DNA of 64,000 bases from Escherichia phage AV125, in the sequence record OR352955.1; one strand, 5' to 3'. The position numbers were made by a program, and so were the translations under genes. Below, in pieces: positions 3,022 to 57,528 of the stretch. The notes under the pieces are model-generated. The model searched no databases, was not told the DNA's origin, and was given only the letters and a program-made list of their open reading frames with translations. Every line of letters starts with the position of its first letter. Position 1 is the first letter of the stretch.

Positions 3022-4614
3022 TTAACGATCCTCTCTGATTTGATTAATCTTACGAGCAAGGGCAGCTATAAGCTTATCTTCTTCAGATACAGGAGCCGTG
3101 CTCTTACCTAAACGATGCATGTCTAAAATCTCTTGAACAGTCCGGTTCCATTGCAGACATTTAATACAACGTGTATGTGCAACATACAGAAGATTTCGTT
3201 CTGATTCTTCAAGACCTACCCACTCACCCTTCTTATCATAATTAGAAGGGAAGTCATTTGCAACAATAACCTGATCCCATTCCAAACCTTTTGATTTGTG
3301 GGCTGTAGTTAAAGTAACTTTAGCCGTTGGAGAGTTACGGTGCATACGTAAAGTGTATGCAATATTATTAGCTTTACCAGAAACAACAATGTTTAAAAGT
3401 CGTTTTGCATCAGGATCTGATTCTGCACACTCTACAAATTCTTCCCAAGAAGTGTAAGGTAGAACTGTCTCATGCTTAACTTTGTCCAAATCACCTCTAC
3501 GTAAAGCATTAACACTATCAACCATAGAAATGAAATCTTTGGTATCTACGTTAATAATAATCTCTTCTCCGTTAGCGATTCGATCCATAGCTTCGAGCAA
3601 CAGGGTCAAATTCTTACGGAAAATAATGGTGTAAGGTTTACTATAATCTACCACATCAGAATGAAAACTTCCAGTGACAGTATCATAACCTTTGCCTACC
3701 AGCGGATGCTTCAGAGGTGAGCGATCAGAAAGGATCGCATTAGCAATGTCCGCAACTTTAGGACCAAAGCGAAAACAAGCTGTCAGAGGCAACTCAACTC
3801 CATATGTAGCCGTTTGCTTCATCATGTTCTGGCTTCCACGGAACTGATAAATACTCTGAAATTCATCACCCACAACAACAATACGTTTAGCCGATTTAGC
3901 ATTGCGAAGGATAGACAGGAATGCAGGGTTAACATCCTGGAATTCATCTCCAAAAATAATATCGTATCCTAAATCTTCTTTACTCAATTCGAAGAGTTTC
4001 ACATAGGTGTCATGAGTCATAATGGTTTCTGATTTAGGATCAATACGCTCACGCCAAAGTTGCTTCGCATATTTAACAACTTCGTTAATAAGTTTTTGTT
4101 CGTTGATGTTCTTACGTTTAAGATCTGACATATGCACTTTAGGAAAATGTTTATGTCCAATATGTTCATCGTCAGAAAACTCATATTTAGCTAAAGTTTG
4201 TTTTACCATTAACCCGATCATTGCACGAGTCAGTAGCACTTTACCATTCTTATCAATCAAGTTCTGAATCTTGAATTTTTTGGCAATCTCACTACCAGTT
4301 CCAGCTACGTTAACATATTGACCTTCTGGACGAGACAATTTGTGTCGAAGGTTTTGTGGAAGACGCTGGTAACAGATTGAATGTAGCGTTCGGCACATAA
4401 CATTAGGCGGCATTTTACGTCGAGCTTCCTCTGCCATACTTTTGTTAAACGCCAAGTATAGAATACTATCATTTGTGCCATTAGCCAACATATACAGTGT
4501 TGACGTTTTACCTGATCCAGATTTAGCTTGAATTGTAACGAAACGATTTTCTTGATACCCACTTTCAATAGCGTATTGTTCGTCGGTAGGTGTAAAACTC
4601 AATTGTGTAGACAC
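3022..4614 (-). CDS. UvrD-like superfamily 1 DNA helicase
   Basis: 530 aa; Walker A AKSGSGKTS near N-terminus after TDEQ; Walker B DEFQD; C-terminal TAHKSKGLEWDQV motif. Confidence 0.75.
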   Translation of the reverse strand: MSTQLSFTPTDEQYAIESGYQENRFVTIQAKSGSGKTSTLYMLANGTNDSILYLAFNKSMAEEARRKMPPNVMCRTLHSICYQRLPQNLRHKLSRPEGQYVNVAGTGSEIAKKFKIQNLIDKNGKVLLTRAMIGLMVKQTLAKYEFSDDEHIGHKHFPKVHMSDLKRKNINEQKLINEVVKYAKQLWRERIDPKSETIMTHDTYVKLFELSKEDLGYDIIFGDEFQDVNPAFLSILRNAKSAKRIVVVGDEFQSIYQFRGSQNMMKQTATYGVELPLTACFRFGPKVADIANAILSDRSPLKHPLVGKGYDTVTGSFHSDVVDYSKPYTIIFRKNLTLLLEAMDRIANGEEIIINVDTKDFISMVDSVNALRRGDLDKVKHETVLPYTSWEEFVECAESDPDAKRLLNIVVSGKANNIAYTLRMHRNSPTAKVTLTTAHKSKGLEWDQVIVANDFPSNYDKKGEWVGLEESERNLLYVAHTRCIKCLQWNRTVQEILDMHRLGKSTAPVSEEDKLIAALARKINQIREDR

Positions 4615-4628
4615 GTATTTCTCCTCTC

Positions 4629-5144
4629 TTAATAAAAACTCTTGACAATCCTCATCATTTCCTTAGCTCTGCTGGCGTAAGGTTCTTTTAGATTAGGTGG
4701 CAAATGTGCATTAATGTATCCCATTTGTTTTTCCCATGTCCACTTATCTTTAAATCTTGGCATGGTGTCTCCTGCTAAACTGTTTTCTTTTCGTGTTTGA
4801 ATAATCCAATTACATGGAAAATGCACACCACCTTTACGGAAGGGAATATAATGTCCCAATGTGAATGCCTTATTGTTCTTTAAACGTCCAGCTAAATTAA
4901 GATTAACAATAAGACTACGAAACACGTAGTATTGATAAAGATTGTCAACAGTATATACAGAGTAGTATGCTCTAAGTGCATTATCTCGACTAAGATTACC
5001 AACATCCAAACTGCACCAGTTTAAATTACTTGGATCGTAGTTGTGATTATCAATCCATTCTTCTCTTTCCTCAAATTCTGCATTAACAGCAGACTGCCCT
5101 GCTGTAGATACAAAAAGAGAATTTGCATCAAAGAACATACTCAC
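4629..5144 (-). CDS. hypothetical protein (171 aa)
   Basis: ORF track; compact spacing to neighbours. Confidence 0.55.
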   Translation of the reverse strand: MSMFFDANSLFVSTAGQSAVNAEFEEREEWIDNHNYDPSNLNWCSLDVGNLSRDNALRAYYSVYTVDNLYQYYVFRSLIVNLNLAGRLKNNKAFTLGHYIPFRKGGVHFPCNWIIQTRKENSLAGDTMPRFKDKWTWEKQMGYINAHLPPNLKEPYASRAKEMMRIVKSFY

Positions 5145-5151
5145 TCCCCCT

Positions 5152-5505
5152 TTAGTTTACATCGTTTAGAGCATTACCAATCTTTAAGATAATAACGTCG
5201 TTAAGAGCTTCTTCTCCATTAAGGCCAGAGAAAGCAGGAGTAACGAAAGTTACCATATAATAATGGTCTTCTTGTAGGATTGCGATAACGCCGTCTAGTT
5301 TAACATCTCCTGTGAAACGAAAAACTTTCAACTTTTGTTCTAAAGGAAGATCTCCTTCGACATTTAAAACCATATCTCCGACACCAAACTTTTCTGCCCC
5401 GATGTAGATGTAAGTTTGGTCCTCTTTTTTATGGTAATACAATGTTGCTTGTTTGTCTTGTAGTGTTGTGATACCAAACACATCTACATCAATAATATTT
5501 TTCAA
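5152..5505 (-). CDS. hypothetical protein (117 aa, TTG start)
   Basis: Track ORF 5152..5562 shortened to TTG at 5505 preceded by GGAGGAG; start overlaps upstream TGA stop. Confidence 0.45.
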   Translation of the reverse strand: MKNIIDVDVFGITTLQDKQATLYYHKKEDQTYIYIGAEKFGVGDMVLNVEGDLPLEQKLKVFRFTGDVKLDGVIAILQEDHYYMVTFVTPAFSGLNGEEALNDVIILKIGNALNDVN

Positions 5506-5870
5506 AAATTCTCCTCCCAAATCCAATAATTGTCTACATAAGTAGGATGCCTTTTGTCCCACTCTTTTCTAGCCCAGACCACGGCTGCTACCAATACATC
5601 TCCATGACAAGGTTGAGGGGAGCAGAAGCAAACTAAGTCTTTCCCTTCTAACTCTAATAAATCTTCAAGAGTGATCTTACCACAACGAATTTGCTCCCAC
5701 AACCACTCTTTATACCTTTGTATAGTTGATCCTCGTGGTTCATCATCTTTTAACTTAAAAGGGTTTGCAAACTTAGAGGCTTTTAATCCCATGTGTGGCA
5801 TTGCTCTACCAATATAAACAGCACCTTCTGGGATTGTTTTGCCTAAATGGTAAAAGTTTAATACCTTCAT
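5502..5870 (-). CDS. DUF4326-family protein
   Basis: 122 aa; N-terminal PEGAVYIGRA...NPF pattern as remembered for DUF4326. Confidence 0.5.
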   Translation of the reverse strand: MKVLNFYHLGKTIPEGAVYIGRAMPHMGLKASKFANPFKLKDDEPRGSTIQRYKEWLWEQIRCGKITLEDLLELEGKDLVCFCSPQPCHGDVLVAAVVWARKEWDKRHPTYVDNYWIWEENF

Positions 5871-5871
5871 A

Positions 5872-6231
5872 TTAACCTAAACACATACGTGCGATCAGAC
5901 CCTGGATGAGTTTATCTGCTTCTTCCCGATCATAGTCGGTATCTTCTATACCACCATCTTCGTCACGATAAACTTTACCTTCCAGGTACCCAGCATCGAT
6001 CAAACCAATAATCAAATCGAACTGCCAGCAAGAGTTACCGAAAGGGCGTTTTCCACTGAAACTATCTTCTTCCCAAAGTGTAGAGAGCAGTCGTCTGAAA
6101 TATTCACGCACAGTAACAGTGCCAAGATCATCGTCTTCAAAAACAACATCTAAAGCATCTGGTTCAGCTTTCTCTACAACAGGCACATAACGTTGACCAT
6201 TAATAACAACATCTACGATTGTTTCTCTCAT
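5872..6231 (-). CDS. hypothetical protein (119 aa)
   Basis: ORF track. Confidence 0.55.
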   Translation of the reverse strand: MRETIVDVVINGQRYVPVVEKAEPDALDVVFEDDDLGTVTVREYFRRLLSTLWEEDSFSGKRPFGNSCWQFDLIIGLIDAGYLEGKVYRDEDGGIEDTDYDREEADKLIQGLIARMCLG

Positions 6232-11886: not shown

Positions 11887-12243
11887 ATGAAAAAACTAAT
11901 CTTAGCCACATTGCTGGCTACCGTAAGCTTCACCACTTACGCTCAAAAATTTGTAGCAGTTAAAACAGATATTGGTAAAGATGTTGTGATCACAGGCAAC
12001 AAGTTTTACTATACACCTGGGAATGGTGTTCTAGAAGAGTGTAAAGATGTTGAGGCATATACGGGAAAAGAAGATAACACGGAACGTCCTTTTTATTCGA
12101 TTATAGCTACTTGCAAAAATGAAATAGTAGCTATTAAACAATACAAAGATGCCCCTGGAGGAGAATACTTATTAGTCAAGAATATTAAGAGTGAAAAAAC
12201 TGCAAAGTTTACAGTAATTATTTTAAAAGGAGAAACGTTCTGA
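11887..12243 (+). CDS. predicted secreted protein (118 aa)
   Basis: Start ATG 11887 gives signal-peptide-like MKKLILATLLATVSFTTYAQ. Confidence 0.5.
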   Translation: MKKLILATLLATVSFTTYAQKFVAVKTDIGKDVVITGNKFYYTPGNGVLEECKDVEAYTGKEDNTERPFYSIIATCKNEIVAIKQYKDAPGGEYLLVKNIKSEKTAKFTVIILKGETF

Positions 12244-13382
12244 TGAAATACACTATTTTTGGAGATGTAGCTGTTGTAAATAAGGAATATGGCGTTGAAG
12301 CTAATAAACTTCCTGCTGGAGTTTGGGTTGTCAACTGCGATCCGCACGGTAACTACTCTTTAGTGCGTGGTGAAAGTTTCTCTCTTCCGAACACTCTTTA
12401 TGGGGAAACTAAAGATCGCGCCGCACATGTTATTAAAACATTTGCTCGTCGTAGTAAAGAAGGTAAAAATACTGGGGTGTTACTGACAGGGACAAAAGGC
12501 AGTGGTAAGACGATGTTAGCTAAACTAATTAGCATGTCTCTAATGTCCACAGAAGGTTTAGGTATTCCAACCATTTTGGTTACACAGCCTTACACAGATG
12601 CTGGCTTCTTAGAATTTATGAGTAAAATTACAGATCGTGCTGTTGTTTTATTTGACGAATTTGATAAAGTGTACGCTAAGAAAGAAGATCAGGAAGCACT
12701 GTTGACCTTGTTGGATGGAACAGGAAGTGGGAATAAACTTTACATCCTCACTAAAAATAGTGGTTATATCTCGGAATATTTTGTAAACCGTCCTAGTCGT
12801 ATCTACTACAGTTTCAATTACGATAAACTGTCTAGTGAAACTATGTTAGATTACTTGGATAAGAACTTGGTAAATAAAAAGCACGTAGATAACTTCCAAC
12901 GTTTATGGGATGTTAGCACAGAGTTGTCTTTCGATGTTATTCAAGGCATTGTAGAAGAATTGAATTTCTATCCAAAAATGACTTTTAAAGAATGTCTTGA
13001 AATGATGGGTATTTCTTTAGGGAACGATGCTAAATGGAATGTGGCTTCTATCGTAGCTAATGGCAAAACCTTGAAGGTGAATTGGATCAATAACTGGCAC
13101 GACTTCACCCCTACTAAGTTTTTGTCGGGTGCTTGTTCCCTGAACATCTATCTACAAAGTTTGAAAGATGATGAAGTGGAAGCAATGGAAACCAACAGTT
13201 ATGTTATCCTGGATGAAGATGGTGATCCACATATTGATCTATGTGCAACGGCTGATGGTCTAACTTGTGATCTGATTGAAGGTGGTAAGATTCTGGTTAT
13301 GAGCACTACACCAGGAAACACTTTGCGAGTGGTGCTGGAGCCTGTAACACAACGTTCCACTACACTTGGTAGCGTGTTCTAA
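12243..13382 (+). CDS. AAA-family ATPase
   Basis: 379 aa; Walker A GTKGSGKT, Walker B VVLFDEFD. Confidence 0.7.
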   Translation: MKYTIFGDVAVVNKEYGVEANKLPAGVWVVNCDPHGNYSLVRGESFSLPNTLYGETKDRAAHVIKTFARRSKEGKNTGVLLTGTKGSGKTMLAKLISMSLMSTEGLGIPTILVTQPYTDAGFLEFMSKITDRAVVLFDEFDKVYAKKEDQEALLTLLDGTGSGNKLYILTKNSGYISEYFVNRPSRIYYSFNYDKLSSETMLDYLDKNLVNKKHVDNFQRLWDVSTELSFDVIQGIVEELNFYPKMTFKECLEMMGISLGNDAKWNVASIVANGKTLKVNWINNWHDFTPTKFLSGACSLNIYLQSLKDDEVEAMETNSYVILDEDGDPHIDLCATADGLTCDLIEGGKILVMSTTPGNTLRVVLEPVTQRSTTLGSVF

Positions 13383-13470: not shown

Positions 13471-14931
13471 GTGCCAAAAATAGTCACTTGGGAACAATAT
13501 AAAACAGATATAAAACAAGCTTATCAAGGTAAGTCTTGGACTGTTGTAGATTATATTGAGCCGTGGAACGGCAATAAAACTAAACTTAGATGCATCTGTG
13601 CTCTGCATGGAGAATGGAAAACAACAAGCATAAATACCGCTAAACTAGGGAGGGGTTGTCCAGAATGCGGTAGGGAGATTATAAGTAAAGCAGTATCTAT
13701 AAACAAATCAAAAACCTGGGAGCAATATAAAGAAGAAGTGCAAACCACTTACAATCAGGCAGGTAAGTTTTGGACTGTTACAGGATGGCACGGAGAATGG
13801 AAAGGATGGAATACTAAACTGGTTTGTTGTTGTGCTTTACATGGGGAGTGGAGGTCTACTTCTATATCTTCTGCGAAAAACGGGAGTGGATGCAGGAAGT
13901 GTATGGGAGAAGCAAACAGAGAAAGAACATCGATTGCATGGGAGAAACATAAAGAAGAAGTAGAAGAAGCTTATAAAGAAAAACCCTGGATTGTTAGAGG
14001 CTATGTGGAACCGTGGAACGGTTCCCGCACTAAGTTGATTTGTGAGTGTAAGGTTCATGGTCAATGGTGCACTACCACTGTAAACAGTGCTAAACAAGGG
14101 ACTGGATGCTACAGTTGTCAAAGAGAAATGACGAAACAAAGGAATACAATGGAGGATAAACAACATGTTGAAGATTTTATAAAAGCTTGTCCTGATAATG
14201 TAGAGCGTAAATATTATCGTAGCGATAGAGTAGATAGATTAGGTCGTCAGGTTTACTGGATTGTAGAATGTCCTATATGTGCAGAGGATGATTATTGTAA
14301 AGAAGGCTTATGCGATAATAAATTTGAGATGAAGATGAGTCATTTGAAAAGGGGTGGCCTTCCTTGCCGTTGTTCTAAATATTATCATTACACTCCTGAA
14401 CAATGGGCCTACCGTATGACCAAAGCTTGCCAGGAACGAGGGGATCAATTTATAGGATTCATTGATAAGGTAAGCAATAACAGCAAGTTTAAATATCTAT
14501 GTAGGGAGCATGGAGAGCAAACGATCACACCTACCGATTATCTCAATGGGAAAGGTTGTCCAGGCTGTAAGAACAGAAATATGCAAGAATTTTACATCAA
14601 TATTATTCTTGATGAGTACGGAGAAGACACGGGAGCTTACAAGTTGGGGATTGCAAAGGACAGTGATATCAGGATCAAAGGGCAGAATGCAAACAACAAT
14701 TACTCTATGCGCCGTATAGCATTGTTCGATCTGCCGTCCTACCAAGCTTGCAGGGCGTTAGAGAGTAAGCTAAAGTCTAAGACTGATCAGATTCTACCGT
14801 CTATTGGCTGTGTAGAACGCTTGCACATGAAAGATGGTCATAGTGAAACCTTCCTGCGCGAGGATTTGGCTATCGTCTTAAGTGCTATCAACCAAGCAGG
14901 TGGAATAATGAGAGAGGAGGAAACATGTTAG
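13471..14931 (+). CDS. zinc-ribbon tandem-repeat protein
   Basis: 486 aa; four N-terminal repeats of ~75 aa each with EPWNG..TKL..C.LHGEW..TS....AK.G.GC..C; cysteine-rich C-terminal half. Confidence 0.6.
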   Translation: MPKIVTWEQYKTDIKQAYQGKSWTVVDYIEPWNGNKTKLRCICALHGEWKTTSINTAKLGRGCPECGREIISKAVSINKSKTWEQYKEEVQTTYNQAGKFWTVTGWHGEWKGWNTKLVCCCALHGEWRSTSISSAKNGSGCRKCMGEANRERTSIAWEKHKEEVEEAYKEKPWIVRGYVEPWNGSRTKLICECKVHGQWCTTTVNSAKQGTGCYSCQREMTKQRNTMEDKQHVEDFIKACPDNVERKYYRSDRVDRLGRQVYWIVECPICAEDDYCKEGLCDNKFEMKMSHLKRGGLPCRCSKYYHYTPEQWAYRMTKACQERGDQFIGFIDKVSNNSKFKYLCREHGEQTITPTDYLNGKGCPGCKNRNMQEFYINIILDEYGEDTGAYKLGIAKDSDIRIKGQNANNNYSMRRIALFDLPSYQACRALESKLKSKTDQILPSIGCVERLHMKDGHSETFLREDLAIVLSAINQAGGIMREEETC

Positions 14932-38737: not shown

Positions 38738-38766
38738 GAGGATACAGCAATGGTTTAGGAGTGGTT

Positions 38767-39438
38767 ATGAAAAAGTTTGTTGTTTACAGTCGTCTTTCTA
38801 AACAGAAAAAAGGTGAGGCACAATATGGTATGGAGAGCCAAGAGAACGATATCCGTTACTTCTTAGACTCTGTGCCTGATGCGGAAGTTATTGGTCAATT
38901 TTCTGAATACTATTCGGGTAAGGGCGATTGGAAGCAACGTAAGGAACTGGTTAAAGCGGTTGAAATGTGTAAAGCTACCGGAGCAACTTTATTGGTAGCT
39001 AAAGTTGACCGCTTGGGTCGTAACAACGCCTCCGTAGCAACTCTTCTAGAAATGATCGATGTTAAGATAGCCATCATGCCAGACGCAGATAAAATGGTTA
39101 TACAGCTTCTGTCTGTTCTGGCTGAACAAGAAGTTAGAGGTATTGCTGATCGTATTAAAAAGGGTCTTGCTGTAGCAAAAAGCAAAGGTGTTTTATTAGG
39201 CAGTGCTAATCCTAAAACTGCCGCTGCACGTAGAAAAGGAAAAATGGAATACAACTCTGTTAAAGCAGACGCTTTTGCAGAGACATTCCGTGAACGTTTG
39301 GAGATCCTTAGAGATTTAAATACACCTTACAAAACTATTGCTGAAAAATTCAATAGTAAGAAAATAGCAACAGCACGTGGTGGTAAATGGGATGCTAAAA
39401 CTGTTTCTCGTTTGTGTGCCAGACTGAACATTAAATAG
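38767..39438 (+). CDS. serine recombinase (resolvase/invertase family)
   Basis: 223 aa; N-terminal VVYSRLSKQKK (catalytic Ser context), LLVAKVDRLGRN and QLLSVLAEQEVRGIADRIKKGLAVAKSKGVLLG match resolvase catalytic-domain motifs as remembered. Confidence 0.7.
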   Translation: MKKFVVYSRLSKQKKGEAQYGMESQENDIRYFLDSVPDAEVIGQFSEYYSGKGDWKQRKELVKAVEMCKATGATLLVAKVDRLGRNNASVATLLEMIDVKIAIMPDADKMVIQLLSVLAEQEVRGIADRIKKGLAVAKSKGVLLGSANPKTAAARRKGKMEYNSVKADAFAETFRERLEILRDLNTPYKTIAEKFNSKKIATARGGKWDAKTVSRLCARLNIK

Positions 39439-46268: not shown

Positions 46269-47084
46269 TTATTTGTTTAAGTGGTCTTCGACCATTTTAA
46301 TGAAACCTTCATTGCTGAAGGCTGTTGCAGCTTTTTCTCGGTAAACAAAAACTCCACGATCTTCATAGAGAAGTGTTTCTTCGTAATTAACTCCAGGGTT
46401 AACTACAACCATTTTTGTACCCATACTAAGTGCAGGAAATAATTCCCAATTAAAATTGATAACTTGGTTTGAACATCCTACTACTACAACCAAATCTTGC
46501 ATGGTCAAAGTATCGAACAAGTGAGCCATATCTGCATACAAAGGTGCAGCCTCACCAAAAAATACAACATTAGGCTTCACCCAGTTATAATCATCTATGT
46601 TTATACTATTGTAACCAATATCTACCAGTGTTTTGTAATCTCCAGGATGCATACGGTAAACTACTTCAGGAAGATATCCGTGTACGTGAATAACAGAATC
46701 TCTGTCTACACCTGCTCGCTCTAGCAGATCATCAACGTTTGTTGTCAAGTTTACTATTTGGTTAGGATATTCCTTAAACCACTTTGCTATTTGAATATGT
46801 GCAGCATTAGGTTGTACATCTTTAAGCTCAACACGTCTTTTGTTATAAAATTCGTGTGTTTTGGCATACAAATCCATACCGTTCTCGTCTACACCACCGA
46901 CCACTGGAAGATCTGGAGATGTTCTAACACGATAACCTGCTTGGAAAGCTCCAATATCGCAGACCTCTTCTAAATCATATTCTTCCCATAAAGCACGACC
47001 ACTATCTGTGTCTGTTCTAAATGTTCGAATCCCACTGTCTGCACTTAAACCTGCACCGCTTACAAAAATCACTCGTCTTGGCAT
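46269..47084 (-). CDS. Sir2-like (sirtuin family) NAD-dependent protein
   Basis: 271 aa; N-terminal FVSGAGLSADSGIRTFR, central HG, FFGE match the sirtuin NAD-binding signature as remembered. Confidence 0.7.
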   Translation of the reverse strand: MPRRVIFVSGAGLSADSGIRTFRTDTDSGRALWEEYDLEEVCDIGAFQAGYRVRTSPDLPVVGGVDENGMDLYAKTHEFYNKRRVELKDVQPNAAHIQIAKWFKEYPNQIVNLTTNVDDLLERAGVDRDSVIHVHGYLPEVVYRMHPGDYKTLVDIGYNSINIDDYNWVKPNVVFFGEAAPLYADMAHLFDTLTMQDLVVVVGCSNQVINFNWELFPALSMGTKMVVVNPGVNYEETLLYEDRGVFVYREKAATAFSNEGFIKMVEDHLNK

Positions 47085-49338: not shown

Positions 49339-50280
49339 TTAATAACCTCCTTCAAAAGGCTTAACTACATGTTGATTAGCTTTAAAACGTTCAACATAGT
49401 CATTTTCGCCCATGTTTTCATATAGCTTAGTAACAACATAAAAGTTTTCCCAAGCATATTCCCTAAACCAACCACTAGTGATGGATGTGCAGACTTTAGA
49501 TAAAGCCATTATAAAACTTTGCTTAGGGGTTGGACCTCCAATCTCTTCACCGAAAGGAATTTGTGAACGTTCCAAAGCCAAAACACACGCTTCTTCATAA
49601 ACACCTAACAGGCGCACATGTTTTGGTTGAGCAAAAAACTTTTCTTTGCTGGTCATAACTTCACTTCCATCTTTCATATAAGATTTATATGCTGGAGCAT
49701 CCATTAACGCGATTGCTTCATGGATAGAATCATGATCATAAACATACGGAACCTCGTCACCTTTAAAGAAGTCTTTACTTTTTACGTTTAAGTTCGGATG
49801 AGAGTAAGTGTATGTTTCTTTCTCACGCAACTCATAAATACTCTTAAGATTTTCTGGGATCTTTGCGCCCAGTGACCGCATGAAATGAATATCTTTCATA
49901 GTTTTAAAGAAATGAGGACTATCCTTTTTAAAACGATGACTCATTTTAAGAAGGTAGAGCACATCTAAAGGAGCAACAACATGTCCAGCGTAAGTTCGAC
50001 GAACATCATCAGAATCTTCACAATAACTAATCAAAGCTTCTGTGCTATCTCCTTGAGAAGCAATATCGTATTCCAAATGTGCACCAGTTATCATTTTGAC
50101 ATGGCCTTTGTTTCCTTTACGTTCTACAAGTTCAACAAACTCCTCTTGAGAGAACATTTTTGATAATTCTTCCCACTCTTGTTCTGTACACAGGTAATCT
50201 AAATCTACACAAGGGCGATACAAGTCTTTTCCCATGTCCATAGCATGAATTTGCAATGCACGGCTACCAATTAACACCAT
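49339..50280 (-). CDS. Pol-beta-superfamily nucleotidyltransferase-like protein
   Basis: 313 aa; N-terminal IGSRALQIHAMDMGKDLYRPCVDLDY fits hG[GS]x9-13DhD with downstream HLEYD acidic residue. Confidence 0.5.
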   Translation of the reverse strand: MVLIGSRALQIHAMDMGKDLYRPCVDLDYLCTEQEWEELSKMFSQEEFVELVERKGNKGHVKMITGAHLEYDIASQGDSTEALISYCEDSDDVRRTYAGHVVAPLDVLYLLKMSHRFKKDSPHFFKTMKDIHFMRSLGAKIPENLKSIYELREKETYTYSHPNLNVKSKDFFKGDEVPYVYDHDSIHEAIALMDAPAYKSYMKDGSEVMTSKEKFFAQPKHVRLLGVYEEACVLALERSQIPFGEEIGGPTPKQSFIMALSKVCTSITSGWFREYAWENFYVVTKLYENMGENDYVERFKANQHVVKPFEGGY

Positions 50281-52692: not shown

Positions 52693-53001
52693 TCAACAAG
52701 TAATTTCAAAAGGTGTATAGGGTTCCGTATTTCTCATGATCCAAGGACTGCTAGGATTGCTCGGATCATAAGGGCCAAAAGGTTTTATGGTAGGTTGTGT
52801 TTCTTTCTTCTGAATCTCTTCAAAAATACGACGAAGTTCAGAATATTCTTGATCCACCATAAGATTCGGTGCATCTGATTCTACAGCTTGCAGGTTATCT
52901 TCCTTAAGAACAATCTCACGAACAAGATTAACATCTTCTGTTTCTAAGATAACTTCTTTACGGATATTACCTACACTTTGAATAATTGTAATCTTATACA
53001 T
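52693..53001 (-). CDS. hypothetical protein (102 aa)
   Basis: ORF track. Confidence 0.5.
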   Translation of the reverse strand: MYKITIIQSVGNIRKEVILETEDVNLVREIVLKEDNLQAVESDAPNLMVDQEYSELRRIFEEIQKKETQPTIKPFGPYDPSNPSSPWIMRNTEPYTPFEITC

Positions 53002-53744
53002 TAATCCTCCTCAAGAGTTGAATAAAATTGAAGACCACCGTCCATATCGAAATAAGCAAATGTTAAGTTATTATTGAACACAGATCCAGTATCCATATAA
53101 ACACGATTCGCATTGATAATAGGTGTTTTTACATAAGAGTGTCCATGAAACACATAATCCACACCCATCACAACAGGAAGTTTCATTCCCTCTTTAGCAC
53201 AGTCTACCATATCTCTGTCCCACATAAGTGCTTCAGCAAAACGGTTTTCCTGTGTTTTTGTCATCTTCGAAATGTATTCTGGAATATCTGTTACAGGGAG
53301 ATATTCCAAAGAAGATGGATACCCACCATGAATAAACGCAAGTTTCATGCCTCTGTAGTTAACAATGAGAACAACAGGTAAATCTTCTGTCATCATTGCT
53401 AAGGCTGTAGCTCCTTCTTCACCACATTCTTCAAAGACCGTATATCCTCCATTTTGATACCAACACTCATAGTAGCTACGATCTCCTTCCAGCATACCTT
53501 TAATCATCATGTCTTCATGATTGCCACGAATAGCGTAGCGATTGTGTTTACGAGTAAATTCTAAAACACAACGAAAGTTTTGCTTTCCACGGTCAGTAAG
53601 ATCTCCTAGAGATACAACCACATCTGTATCTCGGATACCTAACTTTGCCTTTCCTTTTTCATACAAATTATAACAACCGTGTAGATCTCCAATTATAAAA
53701 AGATCTTGATCGCTTTTAACAGTAATTTCTCTGTGTATGATCAC
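53001..53744 (-). CDS. Ser/Thr protein phosphatase (calcineurin-like metallophosphoesterase)
   Basis: 247 aa; GDLHG, GDLTDRG, GNHE metallophosphatase motifs. Confidence 0.8.
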   Translation of the reverse strand: MIIHREITVKSDQDLFIIGDLHGCYNLYEKGKAKLGIRDTDVVVSLGDLTDRGKQNFRCVLEFTRKHNRYAIRGNHEDMMIKGMLEGDRSYYECWYQNGGYTVFEECGEEGATALAMMTEDLPVVLIVNYRGMKLAFIHGGYPSSLEYLPVTDIPEYISKMTKTQENRFAEALMWDRDMVDCAKEGMKLPVVMGVDYVFHGHSYVKTPIINANRVYMDTGSVFNNNLTFAYFDMDGGLQFYSTLEED

Positions 53745-54080: not shown

Positions 54081-54653
54081 TCAAATTATTAACGAAACCG
54101 CATGACTAAATCTTGGTTCAGATATAACCTCTGCTACAGTCACATATGTATCGTGCAGCCAAAAAGATTCTACTCTACAAACACAAATACCGTTGATAAT
54201 GAAATCTACACAGGCTTTATTATTTTCGCACACTTGTTGACTATAAACAACCCCTAAAGAGTCATAAAGTGATCTCACTGTTGCTACCATTTCATCTGTT
54301 TCGTCTTCCTGTGAAACAAAGAAAACGAATACAGACAAGTTATTAGCGAAAGTATTGCTATTCTCTACTTCAACCGACTTACAAGGTAAAAAGGAGTAAT
54401 ATTTACCGTTAGGTATCAATTTCGCCTCAACCTGGTTAAGTATGCTTTGAGATGGTTTTGTTACATAAAAAAGATTTTCTGTTGGGTTTTCAACATTACT
54501 CCTTACTATGCAACGAGTGGGGTTCGAAGGATCAAAAACATGATCGAAATCGACACACACAGGTAAGTTAACAACTTTAAACTTTTTGCTAAGAATGCTT
54601 ACTGCTGTAAAAATCAAACCAGCATTTATTTTGCCAGTGAAAGTTGAACGCAT
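54081..54653 (-). CDS. hypothetical protein (190 aa)
   Basis: Start ATG 54653 after GAGGAG. Confidence 0.5.
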   Translation of the reverse strand: MRSTFTGKINAGLIFTAVSILSKKFKVVNLPVCVDFDHVFDPSNPTRCIVRSNVENPTENLFYVTKPSQSILNQVEAKLIPNGKYYSFLPCKSVEVENSNTFANNLSVFVFFVSQEDETDEMVATVRSLYDSLGVVYSQQVCENNKACVDFIINGICVCRVESFWLHDTYVTVAEVISEPRFSHAVSLII

Positions 54654-54667
54654 AACTACTCCTCGGA

Positions 54668-54862
54668 TCATTCTACCAAAGAGAATTCCGCCTCTTCCAG
54701 GTAGATTACAGACCTTGTTGCATGATATTTAACGCTCCAGAAATTACCTTCGCGCCGTAAAAGTATCTCATTCACATCAAGATTGCTTAGAAAAACCATA
54801 TAACTTAAAGCTTGTTGACGCGTTGAGAATTGTTTCTCTAAAAGTTCTTCTCCGCTCTGCAT
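54668..54862 (-). CDS. hypothetical protein (64 aa)
   Basis: ORF track; AAGGAGGG upstream. Confidence 0.45.
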   Translation of the reverse strand: MQSGEELLEKQFSTRQQALSYMVFLSNLDVNEILLRREGNFWSVKYHATRSVIYLEEAEFSLVE

Positions 54863-56311: not shown

Positions 56312-56327
56312 TGCCCCCGAAGGGGCA
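56312..56327 (-). terminator. intrinsic terminator
   Basis: TGCCCC-cgaa-GGGGCA downstream of 56333 stop. Confidence 0.5.
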
Positions 56328-56332
56328 GTTTG

Positions 56333-57025
56333 TTAAATAGCGGTTCCTTCGAAATCCGCCACATTTACGAGATTAATATTTTCAGATTTAGAAGTCAAGT
56401 TGTTTTCTGCAACAGATTTTTCTTCAGTATCCGCCTCGTTACCTGCCACGTTACGAGGTTCTTCTTCACCGTAGGGATTACCGAATTTCAAAAGATTGAT
56501 CAATTCTTCTTTGGAGAAGTTTTCTAAATCATCGTCTGTTAATTCAATAATCTCGTCTTGTTCTTCAATAAATGTTTCACCACCAGAAAAAGCATCTCGC
56601 TTTTTAGCTACTTCCATAGCTTGTTCTGGTGTTGCCCCTGCGTCAAGAGCAGCTAAAGCAAAGTCTGACCCACTTCCTACTGCATAATATTCTTCATCAA
56701 TCGGATATGCACGTGTTGGGTTGTTACCTTCGTGCAAGAAAATACGTCCGTCTGGATGAACAACAAGTGCAATAAACTCTTCATCTTCTTTATCTGGATC
56801 AGAGTGAATCATCAAACCAGGGACAGCATCACGTGCTGCTTCGCACTGTAGATTTTGTTCAAACCATTGAAAGAAAGAAAGCACGGAGGTCAGACGACCA
56901 GCACCACCTACAAGGTAATCTCCAATTTTTCGGACCTTTTTGAAATTAATAGAATCTACACGTCCACCAAAAGTTACCTTACCATCACTCAAAATCTTAT
57001 TTTTGGTTGCAATAATTGTCGTCAC
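56333..57025 (-). CDS. HslV-like Ntn-hydrolase peptidase with acidic C-terminal extension
   Basis: 230 aa, GTG start; N-terminal TTIIATKNK...GRVDSINFKKVRKIG..GGAGR and AVGSGSDFALAA parallel HslV as remembered. Confidence 0.65.
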   Translation of the reverse strand: MTTIIATKNKILSDGKVTFGGRVDSINFKKVRKIGDYLVGGAGRLTSVLSFFQWFEQNLQCEAARDAVPGLMIHSDPDKEDEEFIALVVHPDGRIFLHEGNNPTRAYPIDEEYYAVGSGSDFALAALDAGATPEQAMEVAKKRDAFSGGETFIEEQDEIIELTDDDLENFSKEELINLLKFGNPYGEEEPRNVAGNEADTEEKSVAENNLTSKSENINLVNVADFEGTAI

Positions 57026-57528
57026 TATTCTTCCTCCTCTGTTAATGTTTTAAGAACCGCTTTCCCGCCATTCACATATTTGCAGATGTATTCTATCGCA
57101 CGTAGTGTCTCTTTGTCAACAAAAATTTGATCAGACGTTGCGAGCGGGTTATTAAGAAGATCACTACAATCACGAACAAGCAGTGCTTTCTTATTAAACA
57201 AATTACTTAAGAACAGTAACTTCGCCTCTTCTTCTGTTATGTGCAGAAGACTGGGATCGGAGCCAGCTATTCCTATTATACAATCAAACAAGCTTTCTTT
57301 ACTATCAGAAAGTTCTTGAAAATGGTTTAAAAGCCAATCTTCTCCTAGACACCAACATTTAAACATTTCCAGTTTATCTCGGAGGGTCATATTCTCTAAA
57401 GTAAGAGCAATCTCTTTTTCAATATGGTTTACACAAATTTGACGAAATTCGTTAGGTTTTACGAGTCCCGTTTGATAGCACTCATCTATACCGCTTCTTC
57501 CGATAGCTATTGTTGCTACACCCATCAA
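57025..57528 (-). CDS. hypothetical protein (167 aa)
   Basis: ORF track. Confidence 0.55.
   Translation of the reverse strand: MMGVATIAIGRSGIDECYQTGLVKPNEFRQICVNHIEKEIALTLENMTLRDKLEMFKCWCLGEDWLLNHFQELSDSKESLFDCIIGIAGSDPSLLHITEEEAKLLFLSNLFNKKALLVRDCSDLLNNPLATSDQIFVDKETLRAIEYICKYVNGGKAVLKTLTEEEE

Follow-up and report, generated by a model that had tools for sequence, protein, structure and literature searches.

Can a phage encode a peptidase of the HslV type without an HslU ATPase and, if so, what kind of enzyme is it? The question is raised by a gene of Escherichia phage AV125 (sequence record OR352955.1), which lies in a 64,000-nt stretch that was analyzed as a whole and is referred to here as the window. 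A preliminary description, made from the letters of the DNA, had read a minus-strand open reading frame (ORF) of 230 residues as an HslV-like peptidase with no partner HslU in the window, which could recruit the HslU of the host or act alone. We find that this ORF is a real gene and that its product is a member of the proteasome-β/HslV superfamily with an intact catalytic constellation. The protein was thus rightly called proteasome/HslV-like, its Thr, Asp, and Lys residues being in place, but it is not an orthologue of HslV and the name "HslV" overstates the relationship.

In profile searches, the peptidase reaches 25.6 bits (E = 1.1e-5) with the Pfam Proteasome family (PF00227), whose cut-off is 22.4, and its residues 1-229 align with positions 14-247 of the 277 in the PHROG family phrog_1040, "peptidase HslV family" (E = 1.6e-63). 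Its best sequence relative of solved structure is HslV from T. maritima (1m4y, E = 4.9e-9), E. coli HslV being found at about 1e-5. We built an AlphaFold2 monomer model on 64 homologues, which has a mean predicted local distance difference test score (pLDDT) of 84 and a core scoring mostly above 90. The modeled core displays the α-β-β-α/β-sandwich fold of proteasome β subunits, with helices H1, H3, and H4 and no H2. When this model was compared with the PDB using Foldseek, HslV 1m4y came first (E = 8.7e-11, target-normalised TM-score of 0.69), followed by the Betaproteobacteria proteasome homologue (BPH) and the 20S β subunits; 827 PDB chains were matched at E ≤ 1e-3, and the top 50 are all HslV, BPH, or 20S subunits. 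Structure prediction and active-site alignment, two of the checks that the preliminary description had named, thus yield a confident proteasome-β/HslV fold in which the Thr/Lys constellation is present.

The N terminus of the peptidase reads MTTIIATK, which places a Thr at residue 1 after removal of the initiator, as the preliminary description had noticed. E. coli HslV, which starts MTTIVSV, is alike in this respect, and its gene likewise uses a GTG initiator. We assessed the conservation of the active site over 150 cluster representatives with no more than 50% mutual identity, drawn from 1.84 billion scanned proteins, with counts taken over the aligned rows. Thr2 (Thr1 of the mature protein) is kept in 139/141 and Asp14 in 145/147, while Lys30 is kept in all 149 rows and Gly117 in all 150; Gly43 (149/150), Ser/Thr118 (144/150), and Asp144 (135/148) are nearly as constant. 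An MTT start is found in 121 of the 150 representatives. In a separate 27-sequence alignment, Thr2, Thr3, Asp14, Lys30, and the Gly117-Ser118-Gly119 segment are invariant, so that the GSG segment singled out in the preliminary description is indeed a fixture of the family. The core also carries Gly40-Gly43 and an Arg143-Asp144-x-x-Ser147-Gly-Gly motif; for the latter, which is β5-like, a fragment search of the PDB returned only an uninformatively weak result. When mapped by alignment, Thr1, Asp17, Lys33, Gly48, and Ser124 of E. coli HslV are the equivalents of conserved positions in the peptidase, and the proteasome constellation (N-terminal Thr, Asp17, Lys33, Gly47, Ser129, and Asp166/Ser169) corresponds to Thr2, Asp14, Lys30, Gly43, Ser118, Asp144, and Ser147, which are conserved in the family. 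The conservation of Thr2 and of the rest of the constellation, together with the MTT starts, points to selection on a working N-terminal nucleophile, and judged by its residues the enzyme looks catalytically competent.

Three lines of evidence separate the peptidase from HslV proper. It scores 32.2 and 31.4 bits with the NCBIfam HslV equivalogs NF003964 and TIGR03692, far below their cut-offs of 137 and 157.75, whereas E. coli HslV, used as a control, scores 303.8 and 288.2 bits. It also lacks helix H2: assignment of secondary structure with DSSP gives a long H1 at residues 45-67 and a loop at 68-83 followed directly by a strand, leaving the place that H2 occupies in HslV empty. Finally, HslV is not its nearest kin. 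The nearest relatives in the scan are tail-bearing proteins of 180-350 residues, then proteins of ~135-160 residues scoring 56-75 bits, above the 26-39 bits of HslV chains; many of the nearest relatives without a tail, ~140 residues long, lie on viral contigs. Because the equivalog cut-offs are failed, H2 is absent, and the ~140-residue proteins are nearer than HslV, we conclude that the peptidase is not an HslV orthologue. What it shares with HslV (ClpQ), whether from E. coli or T. maritima, is the fold, the N-terminal Thr, equivalents of Asp17, Lys33, Gly45/48, and Ser124, and an MTTI start. In contrast, identity is 27%, a stretch of ~9 residues between H3 and H4 is absent, a C-terminal tail is present, the Arg-Asp-x-x-Ser-Gly-Gly motif has no counterpart in HslV, and the gene is not located beside hslU.

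If not HslV, what is it? In their 2021 survey, Fuchs, Alva, and Lupas described proteasome homologues of phages, including the PPH group, assigned PPH and its relative RPC ("with C-terminal extension") to Caudovirales phages and the Proteobacteria they infect, and reported that absence of H2 is the hallmark of both (PMC8665760). The peptidase fits these phage proteasome homologues and may be called PPH-like, an assignment (PPH rather than RPC, AAH, or CPH) that we infer from its features. Like PPH and RPC, it is associated with proteobacteria, has no propeptide, starts with MTT, is missing H2, and has no known AAA+ partner; moreover, it is encoded by a phage, and beyond its own clade its nearest sequences are the ~135-160-residue proteins. 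It differs from PPH, which is ~140 residues long, by a 72-residue acidic extension, and from RPC in that the latter has been reported only in Proteobacteria and in no phage. The BPH protein (5ovs) offers another comparison, since it too is a group I homologue with no known unfoldase, is matched by Foldseek at E of about 1e-9, and has an acidic element, in its case a pore loop (PMC8665760). However, BPH assembles into heptameric double rings, the acidic segment lies inside its sequence rather than at the C terminus, and its sequence similarity to the peptidase is weak (E = 1).

The family to which the peptidase belongs is widespread. The same phrog_1040/RefSeq gene occurs in phi92, phAPEC8, ESCO13, anhysbys, and other phages, and 99-100% identical proteins have been deposited, with no difference to report. 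In our GenBank set, 233 phage records contain the family, and their hosts (Escherichia, Vibrio, Caulobacter, Aeromonas, Klebsiella, and Rhizobium) are all Proteobacteria. A further 290 stretches with homologues were found in IMG/VR, nearly all of these loci starting with MTT; the 1.84 billion scanned proteins yielded 2,334 matching clusters at 50% identity; and 46 BFVD structure clusters, which are predictions for phage proteins with a proteasome fold, match at E ≤ 1e-3.

The most distinctive part of the peptidase is the tail that follows the fold. The preliminary description had put it at ~60 residues and called it acidic. The acidity stands: the tail contains 18 Asp+Glu and 5 Lys+Arg residues, and its net charge is -13. 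Its length is slightly greater, about 72 residues (159-230). As can be seen in the AlphaFold2 model, the tail opens with a two-helix region (about 162-181), whose helices at 164-169 and 172-181 are predicted with a pLDDT of ~89-90. The underlying motif, L-T-x-x-x-L-x-x-F-S-K-E-E-L-x-x-L-L, is kept in homologues down to 44% identity, in variants of the form T-x-E/D-x-L-x-x-F/M-S/T-K-E-E/Q-L. Further on, pLDDT falls below 50 between residues 192 and 216, which predicts disorder, and this stretch differs strongly in length and sequence even between close relatives. The net charge of the tail is nevertheless negative in every tail-bearing homologue, from -5 to -27, except for three short or truncated tails at -1. 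Some relatives have Cys/Trp-rich C-terminal domains in the same position, and a Pfam search of the homologues' C-terminal tails recognised no domain, giving one sub-threshold SAP hint (E = 0.07). Since acidity is kept while the sequence of the tail changes fast, the pattern suggests a function in docking, recruiting, or gating.

No HslU accompanies the peptidase. Many phAPEC8/ESCO13-like coliphages share 99.5-99.6% identity with the 4-kb stretch around the gene, the window belongs to the genus Phapecoctavirus (subfamily Stephanstirmvirinae), and the genome of phage anhysbys (NC_052656.1), collinear with the window, encodes the same ORF as gp185, annotated in RefSeq as "peptidase HslV family." A tblastn search with E. 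coli HslU found no HslU in the window, as the preliminary description had stated, nor in the rest of the 99%-identical anhysbys genome (best E = 5.3), and the full annotation of that genome lists neither HslU nor Lon. The same tblastn search of the window plus the rest of the anhysbys genome, in which E. coli ClpX, ClpP, and Lon were queries besides HslU, found no homologue of these either, the sole match being that of ClpX to the P-loop of a classic AAA-family ATPase encoded in the window, 43 kb from the peptidase. The search for an unfoldase that the preliminary description had proposed thus yields no HslU, ClpX, or Lon and one unrelated AAA ATPase. In PDB comparisons the latter weakly resembles Rix7, VCP, and Afg2, and the family it belongs to is chiefly one of Herelleviridae and jumbo phages. 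We rejected it as a dedicated partner because this distribution differs from that of the peptidase. An HslV gene without a neighboring HslU has already been remarked upon in Salmonella phage pSal-SNUABM-04 (PMC7823757), and the 2021 survey found neither a co-occurring AAA+ partner nor a functional clue for its homologues (PMC8665760).

On balance, we consider it probable that the gene encodes a phage-borne proteasome homologue of the PPH lineage, that is, an autonomous N-terminal nucleophile (Ntn) threonine peptidase, probably ring-forming, with an acidic extension serving recruitment or regulation. According to this model, the peptidase would be expressed with a block of nucleotide-metabolism and host-takeover genes rather than with the virion module, and removal of the initiator Met, as in E. 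coli HslV, would expose the Thr1 nucleophile. Thr1, together with Asp14, Lys30, the Gly40-Gly43 oxyanion loop, Gly-Ser-Gly, and Arg-Asp-x-x-Ser-Gly-Gly, would then hydrolyze peptide bonds. By analogy with HslV and BPH, the subunits may assemble into rings, whose substrates would be either unfolded peptides or specific proteins and which would work with no unfoldase of the HslU type dedicated to them. Facing away from the ring, the C-terminal extension would serve for docking, recruitment, or gating, in keeping with the proposal that C-terminal extensions of these homologues are outward-oriented sites of interaction (PMC8665760). Several points weigh against this model. Our literature search found no biochemical, genetic, or other experimental study of any phage HslV/proteasome homologue. 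HslV alone, without HslU, is a very poor protease (PMC6429459); an enzyme that does without an ATPase would thus have to be activated by some other route. All known hosts are Proteobacteria with HslU, so use of the host ATPase is conceivable. Lastly, connectase, a member of the proteasome family, is a ligase (PMC8665760), and the peptidase therefore need not hydrolyze proteins.

In a first alternative, the phage peptidase would hijack host HslU, either in a hybrid complex that redirects ATP-dependent degradation or by titrating HslU away from host HslV. HslV is, after all, its closest solved relative, the hosts of all family phages in the GenBank set are Proteobacteria and thus possess HslUV, and the phage encodes no unfoldase of its own. 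In HslV, the C terminus of HslU is accommodated by Phe54, Phe57, Ala79, Lys80, and Gln114 (PMC6429459). When aligned with E. coli HslV, the hydrophobic H1 positions of this pocket are partly kept in the peptidase, Phe54, Phe57, and Phe60 corresponding to Leu49, Phe52, and Phe55. However, H2, which provides Ala79 and Lys80, is absent from the model and the region cannot be aligned, while the equivalent of Gln114 is ambiguous. Lys28 of E. coli HslV, which we take to be a contact for the C-terminal carboxylate of HslU, aligns with Ser25. The wide margin by which the HslV equivalog models are failed, the still more reduced architecture of the closest ~140-residue relatives, and the absence of AAA+ co-occurrence in the survey of Fuchs et al. 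(PMC8665760) also argue against such a partnership. We therefore regard host HslU recruitment, one of the two options in the preliminary description, as unlikely. A role for the protein as a specialised Ntn enzyme, such as a connectase-like ligase/transpeptidase or an amidohydrolase, or as a self-processing protein instead of a general protease, is a long shot in our estimation. The proteasome-like family does include, besides connectase, which is a specific protein ligase, many uncharacterised forms (PMC8665760), and the peptidase, having no H2 but an extra tail, departs from the canonical architecture. Yet the full proteasome-type constellation is kept, including Arg-Asp-x-x-Ser-Gly-Gly, and the AlphaFold2 model shows no sign of the S3/S4 helical insertion over the active site that defines connectase (PMC8665760).

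The genomic setting of the PPH-like peptidase, summarized in Table 1, is that of a co-directional minus-strand run consisting of lysozyme, PhoH, up167, and peptidase, in this order. The GTG start of the last gene has one base in common with the TAG stop of up167, and the peptidase is probably the final gene of a minus-strand unit ending at an intrinsic terminator. The σ70-like match upstream is weak evidence for a promoter of its own, since the region contains 21 promoter-like matches against 15.4 expected. The peptidase gene sits among nucleotide-metabolism genes; the head module is encoded on the other strand, ~30 kb away. The protein encoded by up167 is predicted by AlphaFold2 to be all-α (pLDDT 92.5), and we found no significant structural neighbor in the PDB and no recognisable relative for it. 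It is encoded directly upstream of the peptidase in Stephanstirmvirinae-type loci and, with weaker conservation, in loci L026, L027, and L029; it is lineage-specific, the gene between PhoH and peptidase differing from one lineage to another. A PADLOC search for defense and anti-defense systems gave no match for the peptidase, up167, or the downstream ORF.

Table 1. Coordinates of the peptidase gene, its parts and signals, and other genes of the window discussed in the text
Feature	Position	Strand	Basis or remarks
Peptidase coding sequence, proteasome/HslV-like Ntn threonine peptidase	56333..57025	-	ORF, PF00227, phrog_1040; stop codon at 56333-56335
Catalytic core, residues 1-158	56552..57025	-	AlphaFold2, Foldseek, conservation across the 150 representatives, mapping to E. 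coli HslV
Conserved two-helix motif opening the C-terminal extension, residues 164-181, DDLENFSKEELINLLKFG	56483..56536	-	AlphaFold2, alignment
Variable acidic C-terminal tail, predicted disordered, residues 182-230	56336..56482	-	pLDDT, tail comparison
Shine-Dalgarno GAGGAGG, 7 nt upstream of the peptidase GTG start	57033..57039	-	Sequence reading
Intrinsic-terminator-like hairpin, TGCCCC-TTCG-GGGGCA then TTTCTT, 5 nt past the peptidase stop	56312..56327	-	Terminator scan
σ70-like promoter match, TTGACA-18-TAGAAT, 11/12, within the up167 ORF, ~65 nt before the GTG	57090..57119	-	Consensus match only
up167, 167 residues, phrog_14834, upstream of the peptidase	57025..57528	-	ORF, PHROG
PhoH-like P-loop ATPase, 269 residues	57561..58370	-	PF02562, E = 1.2e-36
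Classic AAA-family ATPase, 379 residues, phrog_2376	12243..13382	+	PF00004, E = 8.7e-7
CapR-domain/HNH-like endonuclease, 486 residues, phrog_681, directly downstream of the AAA ATPase	13471..14931	+	
Serine recombinase (resolvase)	38761..39438	+	Same early/middle block as the peptidase
Sir2-family protein	46269..47084	-	Same early/middle block as the peptidase
DUF7277/DUF7275 protein	49339..50280	-	Same early/middle block as the peptidase
Calcineurin-like Ser/Thr phosphatase	53001..53744	-	Same early/middle block as the peptidase

This setting bears on two further alternatives. The peptidase could form, with the neighboring PhoH ATPase and possibly up167, a new ATP-dependent or RNA-linked degradation module. 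PhoH lies no more than 4 kb from the peptidase in 25/25 IMG/VR loci of the tail-bearing clade, and likewise in four GenBank phages (of Klebsiella, Vibrio, and Aeromonas) and two further metagenomic contigs, while PhoH is absent from the 8 kb around the gene in all 55 loci whose homologues are short and tail-less. The genes are co-directional in a unit closed by a terminator, and the pairing persists in a metagenomic locus (L033) of different genome architecture in which the order is inverted, the peptidase being followed by two small ORFs, PhoH, and then portal, scaffold, and capsid genes. However, the conserved gene order ribonucleotide reductase, glutaredoxin, lysozyme, PhoH, x, peptidase, that is, synteny shared by a single broad lineage of ~140-kb myoviruses, explains most of the linkage, and the gene in between (x) is not conserved across lineages. 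Homologues in Caulobacter phages have no PhoH nearby, PhoH is widespread in phages that have no such peptidase, and it is an SF1-helicase-like RNA/nucleotide ATPase rather than an AAA+ unfoldase (PMC7824862). We therefore give a partnership with PhoH a slim chance. A bolder version, in which the tail-bearing homologues either form a module with PhoH or use the acidic, nucleic-acid-like tail to capture DNA/RNA-binding host proteins, strikes us as improbable; if true, it would amount to a virus-encoded, HslU-independent machine for targeted degradation, whose ATPase partner or mode of recruitment would have no precedent in known proteasome-family proteases. As for capsid maturation, a role as prohead protease is favored by the homologue in L033, whose gene precedes those for portal, scaffold, and major capsid proteins by ~1.5 kb. 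Here, the position of the gene in the nucleotide-metabolism region, away from the head module, and the existence of a separate head-maturation candidate between the portal and capsid genes (phrog_3017, E = 2.5e-12) led us to reject this role, which we consider scarcely credible. Known prohead proteases have other folds.

The PPH-like peptidase we describe does not open a new category, since its RefSeq annotation, the remark on pSal-SNUABM-04 (PMC7823757), and the survey of the class (PMC8665760) all precede this work; the gene is named in RefSeq and the family is defined in PHROG. Proteasome-fold peptidases are nonetheless widespread in phages. Should they prove active, these peptidases would be threonine proteases encoded by viruses and working inside the infected cell, possibly against host defense or regulatory proteins, and would offer a natural way of testing how a proteasome-like chamber becomes activated when HslU is lacking. 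With an E. coli K-12 host and many near-identical isolates, the present phage is a convenient model for the function of the family.

Several minor observations were made along the way. In Aeromonas phage 4L372D, gene 228 (4432-4983 in locus L004) encodes a tail-less phrog_1040 paralogue (E = 9.6e-26) starting M/L-T-C-I-I-A. It lies directly upstream of the tail-bearing homologue (5001-5885), in the position of up167, and these tandem paralogues hint at a two-subunit arrangement in that lineage. In Escherichia phage VEcB, the deposited protein vecB_055 is an in-frame fusion of PhoH residues 1-115 with the C-terminal half of the peptidase, implying a deletion of ~1.1 kb with loss of the PhoH C terminus, up167, and the catalytic N terminus of the peptidase. 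All three genes are intact in a newer VEcB assembly (OZ035773.1, 112000-132000; locus L091), so either an assembly artefact or a viable deletion variant may account for the fusion, which we used as evidence neither for a link between the proteins nor for their dispensability. Outside the window, the 159-residue gp266 of NC_052656.1 (16030-16509 in locus L008) is labelled "DNA methyltransferase" yet matches phrog_3017, so this label may be wrong. Similarly doubtful is the "histidyl tRNA synthetase" label given in NC_052656.1 to the counterpart of a 196-residue minus-strand ORF (54081..54671), which has no Pfam match at E ≤ 1e-3. Finally, several records titled "Campylobacter phage" (B15, A145) are 99.6% identical to the phAPEC8/ESCO13-like coliphages and are probably mislabelled or contaminants.

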